From an uncultured Gemmatimonadales bacterium (GTDB taxonomy: Bacteria > Gemmatimonadota > Gemmatimonadetes > Gemmatimonadales > GWC2-71-9): a DNA stretch of 64,000 nucleotides. The DNA is taken from contig CAWCVB010000002.1 in assembly GCA_963798915.1 (NCBI GenBank), positions 576,001 through 640,000 of the forward strand, written 5' to 3'. Shown here in pieces: positions 5,013 through 59,545 of the stretch. The notes beneath the pieces are model-generated. The model ran no database searches and was not told the origin of the DNA. It saw only the letters and a program-made list of their open reading frames with translations. The translations under genes and the position numbers were made by a program. How positions within the stretch are numbered: position 1 is the first letter of the stretch; every line of letters starts with the position of its first letter.

Positions 5013-6299
5013 ATGCCAGGATTGCGCCGAGTTGCCATCATCGCCGGTCTCCGCACCCCGTTCGCCAAGGCGAACGGCGTGCTCAAGGAGGCACGGGGCG
5101 TCGACCTGGCCCGGCACGTGGCTCGCGAACTGCTCTATCGGACCGAACTCGAGGGGCATCTCGTTGATGAAGTGATCTGGGGACAAGTGATTCCGTCACC
5201 GCTTGTGCCCAATGTGGCCCGGGAGGTCAGCCTCCTGCCGCAGTTTCCGCCTTCCGTGCCGGCGTACACCCTCAATCGAGCCTGCGCCTCCGGCGCCCAG
5301 GCCGTGCAGAATGCCGCTGACCAGATCGCCCAGGGCCACGCCGATGTGATCCTGGCCGGCGGCGTCGAGTCGCTGAGCGACATCCCGATTCTTCACTCCC
5401 GCCGGATGAGCGGCTTGCTGGTGGAAGCCGGCAGGGCCCGCTCGCTGGGTGCCCGGCTCAAGGTGTTCAGCCGGATTCGCCCACGCGACCTCGTGCCAAG
5501 GTCCCCGGCCATTGCCGAGCCGTCCACCGGCGAGTCGATGGGGCAGAGCGCCGAGAAGATGGCCAAGGAGAATCATATCAGCAGAGAGGCGCAGGATCGC
5601 CTCGCGCTGATGAGCCACCAGCGGGCGGCGGCGGCCACGGCCGATGGGCGGATGACGTCCGAGATCGTGCCCTGGTTTGGCGGCAGGGAAATGGATCAGC
5701 CGGTGACCAGCGACACGGGTATCCGCAGCGACACATCGCTCGAGAAGCTCGCGACCCTCAAGCCGGTCTTCGACCGGCGCTACGGTACCGTTACCGCGGG
5801 CAACTCATCCCCGCTGACAGACGGCGCCGCGTGTGTGCTCCTCATGGCGGAAGAGCGCGCGCTTGCGCTCGGCTATCAACCGCTGGCGTTCATCCGAAGC
5901 TACGCGGTCGCGGCGGTGGACCCCGGCTGGCAACTCCTGATGGGCCCGGCGCTCGCCGTCCCGCGCGCCCTGGCGCGGGCGAGCCTCAGCTGGAACGATA
6001 TCGGAGTGCTGGAGATTCATGAGGCGTTCGCGGCCCAGGTGCTCTCGAATGAACAGGCATGGGGATCGGCGGAGTGGGCCAGCCGCCTTGGTCTTTCAGC
6101 GCCGGTGGGCCAGGTGGACTGGGACCGCACCAACCTGATGGGCGGGTCGATCGCGGTTGGCCACCCCTTTGCCGCCACCGGGTGCCGGCTCGTCACGTCC
6201 CTCGCCCACGAAATGCGCCGCCGCGAGGCCCAGTTCGGCCTGCTCTCCATTTGCGCGCAAGGCGGCATGGGATACGCCATGGTGCTCGAACATGCCTGA
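5013..6299 (+). CDS. fadI: 3-ketoacyl-CoA thiolase
   Basis: NRACASG, EIHEAFAAQ, GGSIAVGHPFAATG, CAQGGMG; coupled to fadJ. Confidence 0.9.
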   Translation: MPGLRRVAIIAGLRTPFAKANGVLKEARGVDLARHVARELLYRTELEGHLVDEVIWGQVIPSPLVPNVAREVSLLPQFPPSVPAYTLNRACASGAQAVQNAADQIAQGHADVILAGGVESLSDIPILHSRRMSGLLVEAGRARSLGARLKVFSRIRPRDLVPRSPAIAEPSTGESMGQSAEKMAKENHISREAQDRLALMSHQRAAAATADGRMTSEIVPWFGGREMDQPVTSDTGIRSDTSLEKLATLKPVFDRRYGTVTAGNSSPLTDGAACVLLMAEERALALGYQPLAFIRSYAVAAVDPGWQLLMGPALAVPRALARASLSWNDIGVLEIHEAFAAQVLSNEQAWGSAEWASRLGLSAPVGQVDWDRTNLMGGSIAVGHPFAATGCRLVTSLAHEMRRREAQFGLLSICAQGGMGYAMVLEHA

Positions 6300-51009: not shown

Positions 51010-51049
51010 GGGTGAGCCCTCATGGATTCCGACTTTCGTCGGAATGACG
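51010..51049 (-). repeat. CGTC-tagged REP-like palindrome, copy 2
   Basis: CGTCATTCCGACGAAAGTCGGAATCCATGAGGGCTCACCC; 35/40 identical to copy 1. Confidence 0.8.
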
Positions 51050-51070
51050 AAAATTGAGTATCGTCGCGCA

Positions 51071-51126
51071 CGACCCACGACCCACGACCCACGACCCACG
51101 ACCCACGACCCACGACCCACGACCCG
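51071..51126. repeat. (CGACCCA)7 + CGACCCG heptamer array
   Basis: 8 units counted immediately upstream of the helicase -10 box. Confidence 0.95.
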
Positions 51127-51141
51127 TCTTATCTTCCAGCC

Positions 51142-53706
51142 ATGGCCCCCGTCCGCGACCACTCGCTCCCGCCTGATCCTGACGCCTTTCGCCAGGCCCG
51201 CCCCACCAGGGGCCGCATCATTGTCATTGCCCCGACCCGCGCCGCCTGCGAGACCATCGAGCTGGCGCTGGGCCTCCGCATCGAAACCCTGCTGGAGCGC
51301 GAGCACGGCGAGGAACTGCGGCACTGGGCTGCTGAGGGCAAGGGGTTCGGCATCGTGGCCGGCACCGGGACGGGGAAGACACTCGGGATCCGCCCGATTG
51401 CCGAGACGATTGTCGAGGTACCGCTTCGTGTCGGTGTGGTCAATCGCGAACGCGAAGCCACGCCGGAGACGCCGGGCTGGAACGTGGTGATCGTCACGAC
51501 CGGCATTGCCCGTCGCTGGTTCGAAGACGACCTGATCAGCGCTGCCGATACCATCATTGTCGACGAAATCCACCAGACCTCGGCCGAACTCGAGCTCTGC
51601 CTGGCCTTGGGGAAGCGTGCCGGGTGCCGGTTCATCTGGCTCAGTGCCACGGTGGACCCCACGTTTTACGCGCGCTACCTCGGCAGCAGCGAGGTGCTGG
51701 AGACGTCCGCCTTCGATCCGAATCTGCGGGCGCGCGTCGAGGTTGTGCCCCAGAAGCCGCTCGAGTTCCTGGACGCCCGCTTTGTGCGCAAGCTGATCAA
51801 GGAACGGCGGGGAGTCGCGGTCTTTGTTCCCACGCGCGCGGAAGTCGAGCATCTGGCTGTGGAGCTGGGCGAGCAGTGGAAGCGCCTGACCACTGCGTTC
51901 TATCATGGCGGCGAACCCGTTCGCGTCATCCGGCCGTTTCTCGAGGGTGAGGTGGAGCACCCATGGCTCCTGGCCATGACGGCGGCTGGGCAGAGTGCGC
52001 TGAACCTGCGGGGACTCGACACCGTCGTGATCTACGATGCGCGCTACGGGAACGTGGTCGAGCGCGGCCGCAACGTGCTGCACCGGCTCTACCTCGGTCC
52101 CAATGAGATCCTGCAGATGGCCGGGCGGGTTCACGGGCGTGTGCCGAATGGGGAAGTCTGGATCCTGAGCGATCGGGATCTTTCCTTCGACGACCTCCGG
52201 CCGGGTCCGCCCGAATTCCAGCTGGCTGGTGACGCGGAGCGGGTGGCAGTCACCTGTGCCGCCATTGGTGTCGATGCCTCGGATCTGGACCTGCCAGTCG
52301 CGCTCGACCGCGTGGCGTATCGCAAGGCGATTGAGCTTCTCACATCGCGGGGCCTGATCGAGCGCGGCCGCCTTACCAGGTACGGACGGGATGTTGAAGC
52401 CATGCCGGTCGAGCGCGACTGGGGCGAACTGCTGGTGCAGATGGACGACGCCCTGGCGCCGGTCATTGCCGTGTGCGCCAGCATCGACTCACTGCACCGC
52501 ATGACGCGAGATGAGCGCGATCTTCACGGCATGGTGGCCAACGGCAGCGATCACCTGACGGCCTACAACCTCTACGCCGAAGCTGTCAATCAGCACGGCT
52601 ACCTGGGCGAGGTATATGGGCTTCCGCGTCACCTCTTCGAGGATGGGCTGGCGGACTGGGCCGATCGGCGGGGAGTGCTGGTCAAGGCCGTCGAGGACGC
52701 GGCGCTGGGCATGGCCTCGGTGTATCGCGCATTGGAGATGCCGCTGCCTTCAACCCTTCCCCATGCGTCCAAGGAGGTGCGGCAAGCCTTCTCCGAGCTG
52801 GTCGCACGCGTGATGCCGTTTGACCTGGTCATCGATGGCCATACCGCGGATGGCCAGGAGGCGCGGGTCTCCAAGACCTCAGTGGCCGGAAGTTGGGGCG
52901 CCGTCGCGGGCCGCCTCCGATTCTTTGCCGATCGCTTTGGTGTCCCGCGTGCTGCCATCGAGGGCACCACGCTTTCCTACAGCCTGATCCAGGAGCACGC
53001 CACCTGGGGACCGGCGAGATTCAGTGTAGGGGGACCGAGGAAGCACCAGCGAGTGACGCTTTCACGCACGCGGGAATATTTCGGGTTTGACCTCGACGTG
53101 GATACCCAGCAGTTGGAGGGCAGGTTTCCGCCGGAATGGCACGAGGCTGCGCTGGATTCGCTGGCGCACGCCCTCGCTGAGGGCGAAACCGTACACCCGG
53201 GACAGAGCCGCCTGCGCCGCATGCTCGAGCGCGTCGATGAATATTGGCGTCGCTCGGGCGGCACGCTGCCCCAGGTGGCGCCGGCGCAGCTCCGGCAATT
53301 GCTCCGGCAGCAGCTCAATAGTGCCGGCGTCAACAGCTGGGAGAGCTTTCTCCGGGCCGATATCGCGCTGGACATCGACGCGCTCGTGCCGCCGCGCACT
53401 CGGGAGCAGCTCGACGCGCTGCCCTCCAGTGTGCGGCTCATGGGTGACGTGGTTCCGCTGACCTACGAGATGCTGGATGGGGAGCCTGCCGTCCGGCTGA
53501 CCATGCGCGACGGCCAGGCGCGCCGGATCCGCCCCGCCGACCTGCCGACTACTGACCGAAGACTGGTCTTTGCACTGCGCAGAGGAAATCACGCGCCGCT
53601 GGTCGCAGACTCGCTGGAGAAGCTGCGGGAACTCATGAAGCACGAATCGGGGCAGCGTGGGCGCCAGCGACGGGGGCCGCCGTCCAGGGATCGGCGACGA
53701 CGCTGA
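51142..53706 (+). CDS. HrpA/HrpB-like DExH-box helicase with permuted N-terminal motifs
   Basis: APTRAA (Ia) precedes GTGTGKT (I); DEIH, SAT, VFVPTRAE, QMAGRVHGR, HA2-like GRLTRYGRDVEAMPV. Confidence 0.88.
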   Translation: MAPVRDHSLPPDPDAFRQARPTRGRIIVIAPTRAACETIELALGLRIETLLEREHGEELRHWAAEGKGFGIVAGTGTGKTLGIRPIAETIVEVPLRVGVVNREREATPETPGWNVVIVTTGIARRWFEDDLISAADTIIVDEIHQTSAELELCLALGKRAGCRFIWLSATVDPTFYARYLGSSEVLETSAFDPNLRARVEVVPQKPLEFLDARFVRKLIKERRGVAVFVPTRAEVEHLAVELGEQWKRLTTAFYHGGEPVRVIRPFLEGEVEHPWLLAMTAAGQSALNLRGLDTVVIYDARYGNVVERGRNVLHRLYLGPNEILQMAGRVHGRVPNGEVWILSDRDLSFDDLRPGPPEFQLAGDAERVAVTCAAIGVDASDLDLPVALDRVAYRKAIELLTSRGLIERGRLTRYGRDVEAMPVERDWGELLVQMDDALAPVIAVCASIDSLHRMTRDERDLHGMVANGSDHLTAYNLYAEAVNQHGYLGEVYGLPRHLFEDGLADWADRRGVLVKAVEDAALGMASVYRALEMPLPSTLPHASKEVRQAFSELVARVMPFDLVIDGHTADGQEARVSKTSVAGSWGAVAGRLRFFADRFGVPRAAIEGTTLSYSLIQEHATWGPARFSVGGPRKHQRVTLSRTREYFGFDLDVDTQQLEGRFPPEWHEAALDSLAHALAEGETVHPGQSRLRRMLERVDEYWRRSGGTLPQVAPAQLRQLLRQQLNSAGVNSWESFLRADIALDIDALVPPRTREQLDALPSSVRLMGDVVPLTYEMLDGEPAVRLTMRDGQARRIRPADLPTTDRRLVFALRRGNHAPLVADSLEKLRELMKHESGQRGRQRRGPPSRDRRRR

Positions 53707-54249
53707 TCAGCCCAGCATCGCCAGCCAGATTCGGTCGTACGCCTCTCGTGCCGCTTCCTTCTTTGCGCCTCGCGCCAGCGCCGCTTCGAGCGCATCCAGC
53801 ACCAGCAGCAGGGTCGTTGCCCGGTCCTCGCGCACCGGCGGAAACTCCAGCGCCTCGCCGCACGCAACACCGAATGCACTGAGTTCGCCCGCCGCAAAGC
53901 CCATCGCCTCACGGATCTCGGCGGCGCTCTCGAGACCAAGTTCGAGCCACGCCCTGCTCGCGCCGCGCGCGGCATCCTCCTGCATCAGCAGCCAGAGATC
54001 GTCCAGTGCCCGCGTTCCGCGACGCCGCAGCGCGGCAGTGCGGCGAGTGATCTGGTCCCTTGCCAGTTCACCTGCAATGGCGGCGAGCAGCGCCGCGCGG
54101 GTGCCGAAATGATAGTGCACCAGGCCCTTGGCACAGCCTGCCTCACGAGCCACCTGGTCCATGCTCCAGCCATGGAGGCCCTTCGCGATGAGCAGACCCT
54201 CCGCTGCCGCGACGATGCGCGCACGCCGCGAAGCCGCGGGTGTGGGCAT
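53707..54249 (-). CDS. TetR/AcrR family transcriptional regulator
   Basis: RARIVAAAE..SMDQVAREAGCAKGLVHYHFGTR. Confidence 0.9.
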   Translation of the reverse strand: MPTPAASRRARIVAAAEGLLIAKGLHGWSMDQVAREAGCAKGLVHYHFGTRAALLAAIAGELARDQITRRTAALRRRGTRALDDLWLLMQEDAARGASRAWLELGLESAAEIREAMGFAAGELSAFGVACGEALEFPPVREDRATTLLLVLDALEAALARGAKKEAAREAYDRIWLAMLG

Positions 54250-54587
54250 CAGCCCGCCGCGCCGGGGTCCGTGCTCGCGTGCGCCATCGCGGATTCGCGA
54301 TCCACCCGGGCGCACATGGCGTCGCAGAGGTTGGTCGTCTCCTCATCCGCAAGGGCATACCACACGTAGAGGCCCTCCCGGCGGCGGGAGACGAATGCAG
54401 CGGAATGCAGCAGCTGAAGATGCTTGGACAAGTTGGCCTGCCCCAGGCCGGTCAGTTCCACCAGCTGGCTCACCGTGAGTTCGGGACAGCGGCGGAGCAC
54501 ATCGAGGATGCGGAGGCGTGCCGGCTCGCCCAGTATGCGGAAGCGCTCTGCCACCTGGCGCAGGGCGGCGTCGGACAGGCCGCTCAT
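54249..54587 (-). CDS. ArsR/SmtB family transcriptional regulator
   Basis: FRILGEPARLRILD, QANLSKHLQLL, RREG..VWY; Cys in RRCPE and LCDAMC. Confidence 0.9.
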   Translation of the reverse strand: MSGLSDAALRQVAERFRILGEPARLRILDVLRRCPELTVSQLVELTGLGQANLSKHLQLLHSAAFVSRRREGLYVWYALADEETTNLCDAMCARVDRESAMAHASTDPGAAG

Positions 54588-56017
54588 GTGTCGGCCGTCT
54601 CCATGTCCCGTTCGATCGGCAGTCCCGCGGCACGCCACCCCTGAATGCCCCCCTTGAGATTGGTCACGTTTCCGAAGCCATGCGCCTGCAGCAGGGCCGA
54701 AGCAATGCTTGATCGACTGCCAGTCTGGCATTGGAGCGCCAGTGGTCGGTCCCGTGGCAGCTCACCAAGCCGGGTTGGCAGTTCGCCGAGCGGAATGTGC
54801 ACCGCACCGGGAATGTGGCCACCCTCCCATTCCGTTCGTCCCCGCACATCGACAATGGTCAGGTCGCGCTGTTCCGCAGCCACTTCAGCTGCGCTGGCCT
54901 GCGGGACGGTCTCGAGCAGCCCTGGATTGGCGCGCTGGTCGAACACCTCGTTCCCGTAGACGCCCGCCACGCGGTCCAGTCCAATCATGGCGAGCGCACG
55001 CACGGCGTCGGCGGACCCGGAAGCGCCGGCTGGGCTGATGAGGTAAAGGTCGCGGTCGTATGGCAGCAGCGACCCGGCCCAGGTGCTGAAGGCGCGGTTC
55101 AATGGAATGCTGAGCGTGCCGGGAATGTGCCCGCTTGCAAACGCGGCGGCCGGCCGGAGGTCAACCACGATACCGCCCTTTTCGAGGACACCGGGCAGTG
55201 AGGCCGGTGGACGGTCGGGTGGCGTTGGCCAGCTGGCCAGGACCCGGGGTCCGTCCCGGTTGATGCGTTTCATCTCCGCAAAGTAGGCCGGCGGTTCCGG
55301 CTGGCCGGCAAGCACCGCCTGCACGAACTCATCTTCGTCGCTGATGCCGAAAGCCCAGTTCACCACGCGTTCATACCCGAGGGTCGTCTGGGGCACGGCG
55401 CCCAGTGCCTTGCCGCAGGCTGAACCGGCGCCGTGTCCCGGCCAGAGCTGGAGATAATCCGGCAGCTCGGCAAATCGCTGCAACGAACGGAACAAGGTTC
55501 GCGCGCTCGATTCCATTGTGCCCGCCATGTGGGCCGCACGCTCGAGCAGATCGGGTCGGCCCACGTCCCCGACAAAAATGAAATCCCCGGTGAAGGCCCC
55601 CATCGGCCTGCCAGTGGCCGGGGTGTCGGTGACCAGGAACGTCAGGTGCTCTGGCGTGTGTCCTGGTGTGTGCCTGACATCGAAGCGCAGGTTGCCAACC
55701 ATGAAGTGGTCGCCATCGTGCAGCAGGCGTGCCCCGTCCGATGCAGCGAACGCGTACTGCCATCCGGGCCCCCCTTCGGCCGAGAGCAGCACTTGAGCTC
55801 CGGTGCGGGCGGCGAGTTCACGAGTCCCGCTCACGAAATCGGCGTGGATATGGGTCTCGGTCACCTGGGTGATGCGGAGTCCTTCGGCGGCGGCCGCCGT
55901 CACGTACTGGTCCGCGTCCCGCAAGGGATCGAGCACCAGTGCCTCACCCGTGGCCTGGCATCCGACGAGGTAGCTGGCCTGCGCCAGGGCTTCGTCGTAG
56001 AACCGCTTCAGCAGCAT
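54584..56017 (-). CDS. MBL-fold persulfide dioxygenase - rhodanese fusion (CstB-like)
   Basis: ETHIHADF, GDVGRPDL, WPGHGAGSACGK, central pseudo-rhodanese, C-terminal CQTGSRS. Confidence 0.9.
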   Translation of the reverse strand: MLLKRFYDEALAQASYLVGCQATGEALVLDPLRDADQYVTAAAAEGLRITQVTETHIHADFVSGTRELAARTGAQVLLSAEGGPGWQYAFAASDGARLLHDGDHFMVGNLRFDVRHTPGHTPEHLTFLVTDTPATGRPMGAFTGDFIFVGDVGRPDLLERAAHMAGTMESSARTLFRSLQRFAELPDYLQLWPGHGAGSACGKALGAVPQTTLGYERVVNWAFGISDEDEFVQAVLAGQPEPPAYFAEMKRINRDGPRVLASWPTPPDRPPASLPGVLEKGGIVVDLRPAAAFASGHIPGTLSIPLNRAFSTWAGSLLPYDRDLYLISPAGASGSADAVRALAMIGLDRVAGVYGNEVFDQRANPGLLETVPQASAAEVAAEQRDLTIVDVRGRTEWEGGHIPGAVHIPLGELPTRLGELPRDRPLALQCQTGSRSSIASALLQAHGFGNVTNLKGGIQGWRAAGLPIERDMETADT

Positions 56018-56033
56018 GAGGACTCCGATGTGA

Positions 56034-56833
56034 TCAGTGGGACTGCTCCACAGCGGCACGCTCGGCCTGGCGATGGAACACTCCCCGGTTCTGGTAGAAG
56101 ACAAATGCGCCTACAACGAGGAGGAACAGCGCGAAGGCGCGCTTCAGCTGGGCGGGAGATGCCGCGCGCACCAGTCTGGTGCCCGCCAATATCCCGAGGA
56201 TGGCGACAGCCGTGAAGCCCGCGACCGTTCCCCACGGCACCGCCACCCGGCCGGCATATCCGATGTACGCGGAGACAGTGTTCATGCTGATGATGACCAG
56301 CGAACTGCCCACCGCCTGCTTCATCGGAACCCGGGCCAGCAGCGCCAGGGCTGGCACGATCAGGAATCCACCGCCGATGCCCAGCAGGCCCGTGAGCACA
56401 CCGACACCCAGGGCGGTCAGCGCCAGGAGTGGCAGGGAGAACGGCTGGCCCTCTCCCTCCGCCACCACCTTGCGACCGCCGGCGTTGCGAAACATCGAGA
56501 CGGCGGCAATGAACATGACGGCCCCGAGCAGCAGCAGTTGCAGCTGCCCGCTCATGAGCGGCGCAATCAGGGCCGCCGAGCCGTACGACCCGGCCATGGC
56601 GACGGCGCCGAAGAGCAGGGCGGTGCGCCACTGGACATTGCCGTGCCGCCAGTGTGCCAGCGCGCCGACCAGGCTGGTGCCTCCCACCACCGGAAAGCTC
56701 ATGGCGATGGCGCGCTTGGCCTCGAAGCCCATGACATAGACGAAAATCGGCACCGTGAGGGTGGACCCCCCCCGCCCAGCGTGCCGAGCGACAGTCCAAT
56801 CAGGGCGCCGAGGAGCAGACCGAGGACCAGCAT
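56034..56833 (-). CDS. TauE/SafE sulfite exporter; one G short in G8 tract (C8 at 56766-56773 on plus strand)
   Basis: MLVLGLLLGALIGLSLGTLGGGG joins STLTVPIFVY if the tract is G9; second GIGGGFLIVP repeat intact. Confidence 0.88.
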
Positions 56834-57014: not shown

Positions 57015-57470
57015 ATGGCTGAAACACTTACACAGAACGGTATGCCTTCCGTCTTTTCGCCACTCGCCAAGGCCCTCCTCGATGGATTCAGCGAGGGGGT
57101 TGTCGTCTTCGATGCCGAAGGCAAGGTCCTGTACGTCAATCAGCAGGCGCGCTCGACGTTGAGCGAGGAGGACCTGCAGGACAGCGCCAAGGATCTCATG
57201 CCCCGGCTGGCCAATATCGGCGGCCGGCTGCGGCCGCTGCGGGTTGGGTCGCTGGACATTGGGGAAGCGATGTTCCTTCCCGGCCAGGAGGGGGCAACGA
57301 CGCTGGCGGCGCGGGAGAAGGACGCTATCGTACGGACGCTCGACGCGCATAATTGGAGGCTGGCAGAGACGGCGCGCGAGCTGGGTATCAGTCGGACCAC
57401 ACTCTGGCGTCGGCTCAAGGCATACGGGCTTCACCGCGACGGCCGGAGCAAATGGGCGCACACTTCCTAG
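57015..57470 (+). CDS. PAS + Fis-type HTH protein
   Basis: LDGFSEGVVVFDAEGKVLYVNQQA; LAAREKDAIVRTL..TARELGISRTTLWRRLK. Confidence 0.88.
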   Translation: MAETLTQNGMPSVFSPLAKALLDGFSEGVVVFDAEGKVLYVNQQARSTLSEEDLQDSAKDLMPRLANIGGRLRPLRVGSLDIGEAMFLPGQEGATTLAAREKDAIVRTLDAHNWRLAETARELGISRTTLWRRLKAYGLHRDGRSKWAHTS

Positions 57471-59545
57471 CTCTCTTGTTCGCTGCAGTCTCACTTCCGC
57501 AGGACACCGTCATTACATATGCATCCCCGGCCACCAGAGACGTGGTGGTCCGGGCTGCGGCGCGGCATCAGGCCCAGGACACGACGATCGCGGATTACCG
57601 TGCCCGGATGCGCTACCGCCTGAGCGTTGGCCTGCCGGGCCGCCGCTGGGCCCAGCCGCCGACGGCCGCTGTCGAGGAGCAGGTAGGGGAAGTCGCCTGG
57701 CGCCATCCCAATGATCTCCGGGTCGAGATGATCGGGCGCCGCCAGCAGTCACTGCCTGGCGGCTTCAATCTGTCCAGCACGTTTGACCGGCCATGGTTCG
57801 TGCCGCGCGGCGCCGACGACTCGCTGCGGATATTCAGCGACGAGTTTCCGGCCCATGGTGCACTCCACCCGCTGGCCGAGGGAGCCTGGCGGTCATATCA
57901 CTTCGACCTGCTCGACAGCCTGGGCGCGATCCTGCCCGACGGCCGACGTCTTCGGGTGTACAAGGTGCAGGTGATTCCGAAGCGGGCGGGCCCCGCACTC
58001 GTGGCGGGCGATCTCTGGATCGATGCGGCGACGTGGGATGTGGTGCGCTTCGCCTTCCGCTACGTGGGCACCGGGCTCTTCGTCTCGCCCGTTGATGAGG
58101 GCGAGGACTCCGCCAGCGCGCGCCGCGCCAATCGCATCGGCAACCGCCTCGTCACGATCGACGTGGACCTCGAGTACGGCCAGCAGGACGGTCGCTTCTG
58201 GATGCCTTTCCGGCAGATCATCGTGGGCACCGTCACCATTCCGCTGGCGCGCAACAAAGTGATTCCGTTCCAGGCCGTCACAGAATTCTCCGACTACACC
58301 ATCAACGAAGGAGCCTGGCTCGACTCGCCGGCAGCGCCGCCCGGTGTGCAGGTCACAAGTGGCACCTGGACGGGCGGCACCTTCGAAATCCGCCGGCCTC
58401 CGGACAGCGTGCTCGCACAGTACCAGGGATGGACCGACACGCTGAGACTGGTCAGCGAACCTGAGCGCACGGCCCGGGTGCGGGCCATGGTCGCCGACCT
58501 TGCCGAGCTCGTGGAACAGCTGCCGGGCGACCTGACCGACCGGCGGGCGGTGTCGTTCGGCTACGAGCGGGTCTCCGACGCGCTGCAGTACAATCGCGTG
58601 CAGGGGCTGTCGCTCGGCGTTGGCGCCAGGATCGGGGTGCCGGGCCTGCCCTTCACCAACGTGTATCCCACCGTGCGGTACGGCATCAGTGATGAACGGG
58701 CGACCGGGCGACTGGCGCTGGTACATGACGGCCCTCGAGGGACCTTCACGCTCAGCGGGTATCACGATATCGCTGACGTGGATCCGTTCTCGCCTGGCCG
58801 TACGCTGGCCAATTCTGCAAGCGCGCTCTTCACGGCCCACGATTACGGCGACTATTACCTTGCCACAGGGGCGGACGCTTCGTTCCTGACTTCACTGGCG
58901 TTGGCGACGGACCTGTCGGTATCGTTGCGCGGGGAGCGGCAGCGTTCAGTGGCGCGCCAGGCGCGCTCCGGGGTCAACGATGTGCTGGGCGGTGACGGAG
59001 TCTTCCCTCTCAATCCGGCGGTGCTGGAAGGCGACTACGGACTGCTCGGGGTCCGCATTACCCACGCCGGCTCTCTCCACTGGATCCTTGCCGCGGACGG
59101 CATGGCCGGAAAGGCATTGACGACCGGCCGCGCCTATTTCGACATCCGGCGGAGTGCCGGAGGGGCGCGTGGCTTCACACTCCGTCTGAAGGCCGGCATC
59201 GCCGAGGGGTCGGCGCCGCCGCAGCTCCAGTTTCGGTTGGGAGGGCGGGAGACCGTGCGCGGATTTGACTACGGCTCGATTATCGGCCGGTCGTTCTGGG
59301 CGGCGCAGCTCGATGTGTCGCCGCTCAAGGGAACCATCCGGCCGGTGCTCTTCATCGACGCCGGCCAGGCCGGGGCACCGGGCGACCTCTTTCAGTCCAA
59401 GGCGCTTGCCGGTGGCGGTGTGGGTGTCTCGATGTACAGCCCGCTGCTGCACACAACGCTTATCCGGCTCGACCTGAGCCACCCGATCACTCCCGACACT
59501 GGTGGAGCATGGCGCTTCGACGTGGTCTTCTCACCCATTCGCTGA
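57452..59545 (+). CDS. Outer-membrane protein with C-terminal BamA/TamA-like beta-barrel
   Basis: Signal peptide; YNRVQG; LGGRETVRGF; FIDAG; terminal amphipathic strand. Confidence 0.75.
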   Translation: MGAHFLALLFAAVSLPQDTVITYASPATRDVVVRAAARHQAQDTTIADYRARMRYRLSVGLPGRRWAQPPTAAVEEQVGEVAWRHPNDLRVEMIGRRQQSLPGGFNLSSTFDRPWFVPRGADDSLRIFSDEFPAHGALHPLAEGAWRSYHFDLLDSLGAILPDGRRLRVYKVQVIPKRAGPALVAGDLWIDAATWDVVRFAFRYVGTGLFVSPVDEGEDSASARRANRIGNRLVTIDVDLEYGQQDGRFWMPFRQIIVGTVTIPLARNKVIPFQAVTEFSDYTINEGAWLDSPAAPPGVQVTSGTWTGGTFEIRRPPDSVLAQYQGWTDTLRLVSEPERTARVRAMVADLAELVEQLPGDLTDRRAVSFGYERVSDALQYNRVQGLSLGVGARIGVPGLPFTNVYPTVRYGISDERATGRLALVHDGPRGTFTLSGYHDIADVDPFSPGRTLANSASALFTAHDYGDYYLATGADASFLTSLALATDLSVSLRGERQRSVARQARSGVNDVLGGDGVFPLNPAVLEGDYGLLGVRITHAGSLHWILAADGMAGKALTTGRAYFDIRRSAGGARGFTLRLKAGIAEGSAPPQLQFRLGGRETVRGFDYGSIIGRSFWAAQLDVSPLKGTIRPVLFIDAGQAGAPGDLFQSKALAGGGVGVSMYSPLLHTTLIRLDLSHPITPDTGGAWRFDVVFSPIR

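Follow-up and report, generated by a model that had tools for sequence, protein, structure and literature searches.

The motif order Q/I-Ia-Ib-II-III is treated as a constant of the helicases of superfamilies 1 and 2 (SF1/SF2), and the DEAD-type profiles of Pfam depend on it. A gene found in a 64,000-nucleotide stretch of DNA from an uncultured Gemmatimonadales bacterium (contig CAWCVB010000002.1, positions 576,001 to 640,000; the window hereafter) raises the question of whether this order can be rearranged in a natural enzyme. The gene, at 51142..53706 (+), encodes a DExH helicase of 854 residues in which a segment resembling motif Ia stands ahead of the Walker A motif, and a first-pass annotation had proposed that the Ia unit was moved to the N-terminus of the first RecA-like domain (RecA1) of an HrpA/HrpB-like protein. 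Based on the evidence gathered here, the product is most probably a nucleoside triphosphatase (NTPase) of the DEAH/RHA type (HrpA/HrpB-like) with RecA1 in permuted order and the Ia unit first in the chain; the predicted arrangement would correspond to a non-cyclic permutation.

The open reading frame (ORF) proved intact, as had been claimed, and every motif string quoted in the first-pass annotation was found in the order Ia-like, I, Ib, II, III. The complete linear order observed is Ia-like, I, Ib, Ic, II, III and not I, Ia, Ib, Ic, II, III; the stretch previously labelled Ib is present, but it spans both Ib (hook-turn) and Ic in the nomenclature of the DEAH/RHA helicases. The N-terminal unit (RIIVIA-PTR-AACETIELAL; IIVIAPTRAACETI within residues 26-39 and RIIVIAPTRAACETIELAL within residues 25-43) is composed of a strand at residues 26-30 (RIIVIA), the tripeptide P31-T32-R33 and a helix at residues 33-43. 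A second helix (residues 49-66) is aligned with the one preceding Walker A in HrpA and HrpB, and the Ib strand, aligned with VGYRMR of HrpB, comes directly after the Walker A helix. Among 28 diverse sequences DEIH, GTGKT (residues 76-80), SAT and QMAGRVHGR are invariant or nearly so. The description of motifs V and VI as divergent holds with the qualification that Q325, G328, R329, G332 and R333 are invariant in these 28 sequences.

Does anything resembling motif Ia remain in its canonical place? The distance from GK[ST] to DExH is 63 residues in this protein vs 92 in Escherichia coli HrpA and 91 in HrpB (sequences taken from the K-12 loci L081 and L082). The hhalign alignment of the family profile (28 sequences) with HrpB, which extends over RecA1 and RecA2 (family 57-337, HrpB 11-330; Prob 97.9, E 6.7e-13), placed a 24-column gap in the family right behind GKT, opposite WLPLQLLAHPGINGKIILLEPRRL of HrpB. 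In a HMMER profile search of the PDB the best match was HrpA (E 1.9e-19), with the alignment divided into two segments, HrpA 81-116 (profile 37-74) and HrpA 169-613 (profile 99-527). On account of the shorter I-to-II spacing, the hhalign gap and the split HMMER match, it can be concluded at the sequence level that a strand-helix unit of some 28 residues is missing where the canonical order would have it; the unit at the N-terminus measures 27 residues. The 63-residue spacing and the gap also bear out the earlier statement that no Ia-like PxR segment lies between I and Ib, and no strand-PxR-helix unit was detected between Walker A and the next strand of this protein. In A3, an alignment of 103 sequences that are 38-92% identical to the query (residues are counted only where they exist at the column), the gap from Walker A to Ib (T80 to V97) amounts to 15-20 residues in 103/103 members. 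A different segment behind Walker A in the position of Ia, which the first-pass annotation had named as the observation contrary to its proposal, was not found in these 15-20 residues, and the N-terminal strand is predicted to lie inside the RecA1 sheet.

Judged by its sequences, the Ia-before-I order is a family trait. Its conservation among homologs had been set beforehand as a test, and in A3 P31 is present in 92/92 and R33 in 92/93 sequences, accompanied by R25 (86/88), T32 (86/92), C36 (89/93) and T49 (98/99); G76, G78 and K79 of Walker A are found in 103/103 and R102 of the Ib strand in 91/103. The family order was seen in 92 of the 103 aligned sequences, from independent assemblies and two phyla. 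In all 19 close homologs (71-85% identity) the N-terminus is conserved from M1 onwards, GRxIxIAPTRAACETI being nearly invariant, and in full-length relatives at 29-45% identity the match begins at their own residues 3-8 or so, the unit being the very start of the protein. The lead-in (residues 1-21) is specific to the Gemmatimonadota clade, and its residues 6-21 contact the core in the two-chain prediction described below; the Patescibacteria-type relatives lack it and start about 10 residues ahead of the conserved proline.

A scan of 1.84 billion cluster representatives retrieved 880 proteins at E <= 1e-3, including 235 at E <= 1e-30. According to the source names, members occur in Gemmatimonadota (the closest homologs in Gemmatimonadales) and in Patescibacteria, the distant relatives being named from Patescibacteria, Ryanbacteria, Falkowbacteria and Uhrbacteria. 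When GTDB genomes were searched with the pattern DE[IV]HQT, 580 of 599 matched stretches encoded a relative, and tblastn of the whole protein against the best 80 of these related loci, on which the gene-context counts given below are also based, gave a match covering at least half of it in 78. These 80 stretches are all of the Gemmatimonadota type except one, a 4.8-kb contig labelled as a Bacillota metagenome-assembled genome (L008, JBLMWC010000111.1) that carries a copy 78% identical to the Gemmatimonadales protein; a binning error is more likely than a true occurrence in Bacillota. Whether a Walker A upstream of the unit, or an intermediate with the order I-Ia-I, occurs in relatives with longer N-termini was examined: P0194, P0256 and P0240 turned out to be frameshifted gene calls and the extension of P0311 is a low-complexity Asp-rich sequence; no upstream P-loop was found in any of them.

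The position of the N-terminal strand in the fold was addressed by structure prediction. A first AlphaFold2 (AF2) run with the 19 close homologs gave a mean predicted local distance difference test score (pLDDT) of 60.5 with a poorly defined RecA2; it was not used for the core, and its Foldseek result was taken as evidence of kinship with HrpB/HrpA only. A second run on residues 1-420 with 103 diverse sequences reached a mean pLDDT of 90 and a predicted template modelling score (pTM) of 0.88, and blocks of residues 11-60 scored 91/93/87/86/94. The predicted elements are the strands (E) and helices (H) E26-30, H33-43, H50-64, E69-73, H83-91, E97-100, E115-119, E137-140, E163-168 and E184-188, and three consecutive strands (292-298, 301-307 and 310-316) are predicted between motifs V and VI in RecA2, the region from which a beta-hairpin projects in DEAH/RHA helicases. 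All 50 matches listed by Foldseek against the PDB are helicases (query TM-score, TMq, 0.54-0.72; E down to 4e-18), the top ones of the DEAH/RHA group (HrpA, DHX8/Prp22, Prp43, DHX15 and Prp2) and HrpB at rank 36, consistent with two RecA-like domains of the DEAH/RHA fold in the model.

Residues 1-64 and 65-345 were then folded as two separate chains with A3. The interface score (ipSAE) was 0.82, vs 0.00 for the best of three controls, and the runs share at least 92% of contacts with a partner pLDDT of at least 78. The lowest-error residue pairs are 28-139, 28-117, 27-139, 27-138, 26-137, 26-115 and 29-118; residue 29 also contacts A123 and residue 39 contacts 117. Since these pairs run from 26 to 29 along 137-139 on one side and 115-118 on the other, the strand at residues 25-29 is predicted to have the Walker B strand (136-139) as its parallel neighbour on one side and the Ic strand (114-119) on the other. 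The core of the ASCE-type NTPases comprises five parallel strands in the order 51432 with Walker B after strand 3, as described in the available text of PMC9960219, and by this order the strand beyond Walker B is the first core strand after the P-loop. In the model a strand is found beyond Walker B, residues 25-29 parallel to 136-139, and the sequence numbering of the core would thus be permuted. The strands of HrpB between motifs I and II are Ia, VGY (Ib) and Ic, and the last two align one-to-one with 97-100 and 115-119 of the family, so that by elimination the slot adjoining Walker B would be that of Ia; the Ib and Ic strands are predicted further out than the N-terminal strand. Mean-field direct coupling analysis (199 sequences; effective number 61 at 80% identity) was uninformative owing to terminal-gap artefacts, the best unit-core pairs ranking 154 or worse.

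Does the unit also look like motif Ia? A profile of its 27 columns was compared by hhalign with five DEAD/DEAH helicases of E. coli, and in four of them its best site was the Ia unit: RhlB 86-102 (E 2.2e-4), DeaD 77-96 (E 6.1e-4), RhlE 77-93 (E 2.8e-3) and HrpB 49-64 (GKIILLEPRRLAARNV, E 0.22). When 127 stop-to-stop ORFs with a length of 200 aa or more, drawn from 118 kb of E. coli DNA, were ranked by the profile as a decoy set, the Ia units of the DEAD-box proteins RhlB, DeaD and RhlE took ranks 1-3 (scores 25.1, 24.0 and 20.2), the next score being 16.2, the 95th percentile 14.5 and the median 9.5. The best match of the profile anywhere in residues 49-620 of the protein itself is its motif IV unit (residues 220-244, RGVAVFVPTRAEVEHLA; score 25.9, E 2.3e-4, 36% identity), and canonical motif IV units are picked as well, as the second match in RhlB and the best match in UvrB. 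The motif IV of the family is of the PTR type (VFVPTRAxAExLA), unlike the LxFLPG type of HrpB. As the profile matches both the Ia units and the protein's own motif IV, the N-terminal unit can be described as a putative strand-PTR-helix module of the SF2 Ia/IV kind, which by its sequence may descend from Ia or from IV.

Several observations weigh against a permuted RecA1 carrying the Ia unit first. The resemblance to the Ia of the DEAH proteins is poor: the HrpB score (12.2) falls under the 95th percentile of the decoys and cannot be told from noise, and in HrpA a site other than Ia matches best. A hidden Markov model (HMM) of 30 positions of the unit gave nothing significant by hmmsearch against 8 E. 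coli helicases and 499 stop-to-stop ORFs (the Ia units of RhlB and DeaD surface at E 5-15 only), a Pfam search with seven N-terminal pieces returned 0 families, and phmmer of the N-terminal piece against the PDB returned 0 matches at E <= 10. The unit resembles the protein's own motif IV as strongly as the DEAD-box Ia (20-25), so that it may derive from either; the claim that it was moved to the N-terminus is an evolutionary inference. Concerning the structure, all three-dimensional evidence is prediction; the two-chain test splits one polypeptide, a case that tends to pass, and its calibration (116 of 157 solved complexes attain the mark, as do 2 of 215 mismatched pairs) is only roughly valid for a run with its own alignment. 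The place of the canonical Ia strand between the motif II and Ic strands is inferred from the ASCE rule and elimination, and an explicit strand order for SF2 RecA1 was not found in the literature searched, including the available portions of PMC5758891, PMC1616948 and PMC7671478. Finally, 11 of the 103 A3 sequences are N-terminally shorter and lack the unit (P0145 and P0152 start within it and P0141 just behind it); judged from the sequences these are probably mis-called starts or truncated gene calls.

It is possible, although we regard it as unlikely, that the topology is as described and that a lost Ia was replaced by a copy of the motif IV unit of the protein itself, which forms the initial strand and helix of RecA2 and likewise carries PTR. 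The internal match at residues 220-244, the best within the protein, and the recognition of motif IV in RhlB and UvrB by the same profile are what such a copy would explain. In many SF2 helicases the Ia unit resembles the IV unit (DEAD-box PTRELA vs xxTK/R), a likeness that may reflect a shared role at the RNA backbone; the DEAD-box Ia units score about as high against single sequences (20-25), and 27 columns are too few for a tree to decide the origin. The resemblance between the two units could reflect either an internal duplication or a common grip on the RNA backbone. A second explanation, which appears very improbable, is that the N-terminal segment is an accessory element, like the three-helix N-terminal domain of HrpA, abutting the edge of the RecA1 sheet, that its likeness to Ia is due to chance and that Ia was lost. 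The poor DEAH likeness, with HrpB within noise and the best HrpA site elsewhere, and the unit HMM with no significant match would agree with it. However, the strand is predicted to be flanked by 136-139 and 114-119 and hence interior, not at the edge; the conservation of the unit equals that of Walker A; the three best of 127 ORFs by the strand-PxR-helix profile are matched at DEAD-box Ia units; and the loss of an interior strand with nothing in its place would be expected to break the sheet. An assembly artefact (frameshift, mis-join or wrong start codon), which the frameshifted calls among high-GC metagenomic relatives (P0194, P0256 and P0240) and the tandem repeat just upstream of the start codon might bring to mind, has a practically negligible probability and is already refuted by the conservation data. 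The ORF is intact, the order is seen in 92/103 sequences from independent assemblies and two phyla, 78/80 loci are matched over at least half of the protein and the start is conserved from M1 in 19/19 close homologs.

Returning to the permuted RecA1, a mechanism can be outlined. The catalytic residues are all conserved (K79, D141, E142, H144, S168-T170, Q325, R329 and R333), for which reason the enzyme is expected to be active; by analogy with HrpA, HrpB and Prp43 it would probably be an RNA-dependent, RNA-stimulated NTPase translocating in the 3'-to-5' direction. The N-terminal strand would join the sheet in parallel orientation, flanked by the Walker B strand and the Ic strand, in the slot filled by the first post-P-loop strand in canonical SF2 helicases, and because it would fill this slot P31 and R33 are predicted next to T119-G121 on the RNA-binding face. 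In the available text on the HrpA-RNA structure, P130 and R132 of Ia and T174 of Ic bind the adjacent nucleotides U12-U13 and R159 of Ib binds U14 (PMC8325345). The P-x-R spacing of P130-R131-R132 in HrpA equals that of P31-T32-R33. RecA2, the winged helix and a ratchet-like helical bundle would follow RecA1, as in HrpA, the RNA being held by motifs IV and V on RecA2 and by N-terminal Ia, Ic and Ib on RecA1, with the bundle over it. The connectivity would be new in that the P-loop helix is followed directly by the hook-turn strand, with helix 50-64 as the sole link between Ia and the P-loop strand. Such an order may have arisen by duplication followed by loss, or a copy of the motif IV unit may have been recruited. 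The role of HrpA in ribosome rescue, as described in the available part of PMC11419001, provides a lead for the cellular role and not evidence of it.

Table 1. Features of the helicase gene and its surroundings (positions in the window; residues of the 854-residue protein)
Feature	Residues	Position	Strand	Basis or remark
Whole gene, DExH (DEIH) helicase of DEAH/RHA kind, RecA1 predicted in permuted order	1-854	51142..53706	+	ORF, weak Pfam, fold matches
N-terminal lead-in, RDHxLPPDPDA[FY]R	1-21	51142..51204	+	alignments
Putative relocated Ia-like unit	22-48	51205..51285	+	conservation, AF2, two-chain contacts, profile ranking
Pre-Walker A helix	49-66	51286..51339	+	T49 in 98/99; AF2; profile alignments
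Motif I / Walker A, GFGIVAGTGTGKT	68-80	51343..51381	+	alignments
Ib (hook-turn region) strand, LRVGVVNRERE	95-105	51424..51456	+	hhalign, conservation, AF2
Ic strand and T119-T120-G121, NVVIVTTGIA	114-123	51481..51510	+	hhalign, conservation, two-chain fold
Motif II / Walker B, TIIVDEIHQTS (DEIH 141-144)	137-147	51550..51582	+	alignments, two-chain fold
Motif III, IWLSAT (SAT 168-170)	165-170	51634..51651	+	alignments
Motif IV unit of RecA2, PTR-bearing, GVAVFVPTRAEVEHLA	220-244	51799..51873	+	hhalign
Motif V, divergent (MTAAGQSALN), AMTAAGQSALNLRGL	278-292	51973..52017	+	aligned to HrpB TNIAETSLTI
Motif VI, QMAGRVHGR, both arginines retained	325-333	52114..52140	+	alignments
Winged-helix and helical-bundle (HA2/ratchet-like) region	357-535	52210..52746	+	hhalign, HMMER vs HrpA
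C-terminal domain, possibly HrpA/HrpB C-terminal-like (kinship unproven)	611-835	52972..53646	+	AF2, weak hhalign
Arg-rich basic tail, length varies among relatives	834-854	53641..53703	+	sequence, alignment
CACGACC x 8.1, perfect heptamer tandem repeat		51069-51125		ends 17 bases before helicase start codon
TetR		53707-54315	-	
ArsR		54249-54731	-	
Metallo-beta-lactamase (MBL)-fold/double-rhodanese protein		54584-56104	-	
Omp85/DUF5686 gene		57353-59545	+	
Overlapping ORF, 376 aa		51004-52134	-	
Overlapping ORF, 148 aa, heptamer repeat read as PTTHDPR repeats		51044-51490	+ (other frame)	

The assignment of the protein to an HrpA/HrpB-like family, also proposed from the letters, is sustained by NCBIfam, hhalign, Foldseek, HMMER and language-model features. 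In NCBIfam the HrpB models match with 40.1 bits vs a cut-off of 546.15 (TIGR01970, E 1.5e-10) and 29 vs 1053 (PRK11664), and the HrpA models TIGR01967 and PRK11131 with 12.9-14 bits, under their cut-offs of 723-1400; by language-model features, the look-alikes found beyond the clusters of the family itself are HrpB clusters (0.96-0.97). Pfam finds DEAD at residues 112-172 (profile 94-161 of 167, 25.5 bits vs a cut-off of 26) and Helicase_C, weak and partial. In this protein and in 8/8 relatives the DEAD model is matched in its second half only (about 81-164 of 167), and several relatives show weak nSTAND_NTPase5, AAA or AAA_30 matches over the stretch from Walker A to Walker B. The half-matches and AAA-type matches are a side effect of the short I-to-II spacing and could mislead automated annotation. 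Public sources give the label 'DEAD/DEAH box helicase' or 'HrpA', as had been anticipated; because the Pfam DEAD-type models match in their second half only, proteins of this family receive generic labels and the rearrangement is overlooked. In the sequence comparison with the PDB, the matches to DHX29, HrpA and DHX36 do not start until residues 106-115 or so, and that to the RNA helicase 9l5s starts at residue 60.

Behind RecA2, residues 357-535 align with HrpA 421-612 (hhalign Prob 92.1, E 6.2e-7), as expected for a winged helix and a helical bundle, and the HMMER match reaches HrpA 613. The HA2-like part of the earlier description is upheld by this alignment; the HrpA-like C-terminal part fared less well, as the matches of residues 611-835 to the C-terminal parts of HrpA and HrpB are weak (hhalign E 0.13-0.16, as for everything beyond residue 535). 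This region forms a block of pLDDT 66-93 (mostly 80-93) in the first AF2 model despite its shallow alignment; in that model the pLDDT is under 50 in residues 446-543 and 559-611. Pfam HA2, DUF3418 and OB_NTP_bind, the last representing the OB-fold domain with which DEAH/RHA helicases close the RNA tunnel, gave no match in this protein and HrpB_C (PF08482) none at E <= 1, the alignment with HrpB 670-741 having E 0.16; DUF3418 was detected in one of the eight relatives searched (P0272, E 1.3e-6, 27.8 bits vs a cut-off of 25). The Patescibacteria-type relatives (P0129, P0134, P0146, P0272 and others) are 1000-1490 aa long and bear long, varied C-terminal extensions with predicted coiled-coil-like stretches and CPVCG motifs; the Gemmatimonadota proteins lack such extensions and end in the Arg-rich tail. 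One weak LmuB (SMC-like) match was seen in P0146 at 910-1402 (E 1.8e-4). Among the PADLOC defence models no family was found for this protein, and in the relatives nothing beyond weak, generic matches to Cas3 helicases was seen (E 2.7e-5 at best).

The window has a G+C content of 64-70% throughout, and the two ORFs that overlap the helicase gene look like the shadow ORFs usual in DNA of 65-70% G+C. The heptamer repeat upstream has no other occurrence in the window and could represent a variable tract of simple sequence within the leader or promoter. Of 70 related loci scanned over the 300 bases preceding position 6001, where the match starts in most of them, only two contain tandem repeats, with other units (CAGCTAA x11 in L021 and CGTCCAGC x4 in L016). 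No operon partner emerged among the 80 related loci. The upstream 400-aa ORF and the TetR, ArsR and MBL-rhodanese genes are each present in 2-4 of the 80, and the sole recurrent neighbour is the Omp85/DUF5686 gene (35/80). Since the TetR, ArsR and MBL-rhodanese genes recur in 4/80 loci vs 35/80 for the Omp85-like gene, their block (53707-56104) has the appearance of a locally inserted segment, perhaps one concerned with sulfur or persulfide handling. The ORFs called for these three genes overlap by 67 and 148 bases, and their true starts probably lie further downstream.

In the literature searched, most subscription journals being outside its coverage, no account of an SF2 helicase in which Ia precedes Walker A was found. 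This is probably the first natural SF2 family with a non-cyclically permuted RecA1, the N-terminus contributing the Ia module, and the arrangement has persisted in Gemmatimonadota and in Patescibacteria with their reduced genomes. If so, motif Ia would be a separable folding and RNA-binding module, and the covalent path from P-loop to helix to Ia, usually assumed to couple the ATP state to the grip on RNA, would be dispensable or replaced. A natural permutation of this type offers a test of the role of the P-loop-to-Ia chain connectivity in coupling ATP hydrolysis to translocation, as well as a natural site at which RecA-like domains could be split in engineering or folding work. Patescibacteria have small genomes and keep few RNA-remodelling enzymes; the N-terminal RxxVIAPTR[SA]xC together with DE[IV]HQTS provides a diagnostic signature for a helicase clade retained in them. 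The permuted order alone reveals no new cellular function.

Circularly permuted GTPases of the YjeQ/RsgA and YlqF types are a precedent among P-loop NTPases in which fold and activity are kept with permuted motifs. They represent a cyclic permutation (G4-G5-G1-G2-G3), whereas in the family described here a single strand-helix unit would be transposed, non-cyclically. Among helicases, Prp43/DHX15, Prp22/DHX8 and Prp2 have the same core fold (TMq 0.6-0.72), including the three strands predicted here between motifs V and VI, but show the canonical motif order, an identity of about 15-19% (Foldseek) and different accessory ends. The best PDB match by profile and fold is HrpA (PDB 6ZWW and 8PO6), a DEAH/RHA 3'-to-5' RNA helicase (E 4e-18, TMq 0.66-0.71) in which the P-x-R of Ia touches RNA, and P31-x-R33 mirrors it here. 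HrpA has the canonical I-Ia-Ib-Ic-II order, a three-helix domain at the N-terminus and a long region at the C-terminus, and both HrpA and HrpB contain 28-29 more residues from Walker A to DExH than this protein. The closest named family by NCBIfam and language-model features is HrpB (PDB 6EUD/6HEG), which shares a similar length, a DExH motif II, SAT and QxxGRxxR. HrpB-like proteins occur mainly in Proteobacteria and Actinobacteria according to the available text of PMC7237152, whereas the present family is named from Gemmatimonadota and Patescibacteria. The two families differ further in motif II (DEIHQTS here vs DEFHERS in HrpB) and in motif IV, which is of the PTR type here, and above all in the placement of Ia, which follows Walker A in HrpB, whereas the Ia-like unit precedes it in this family.

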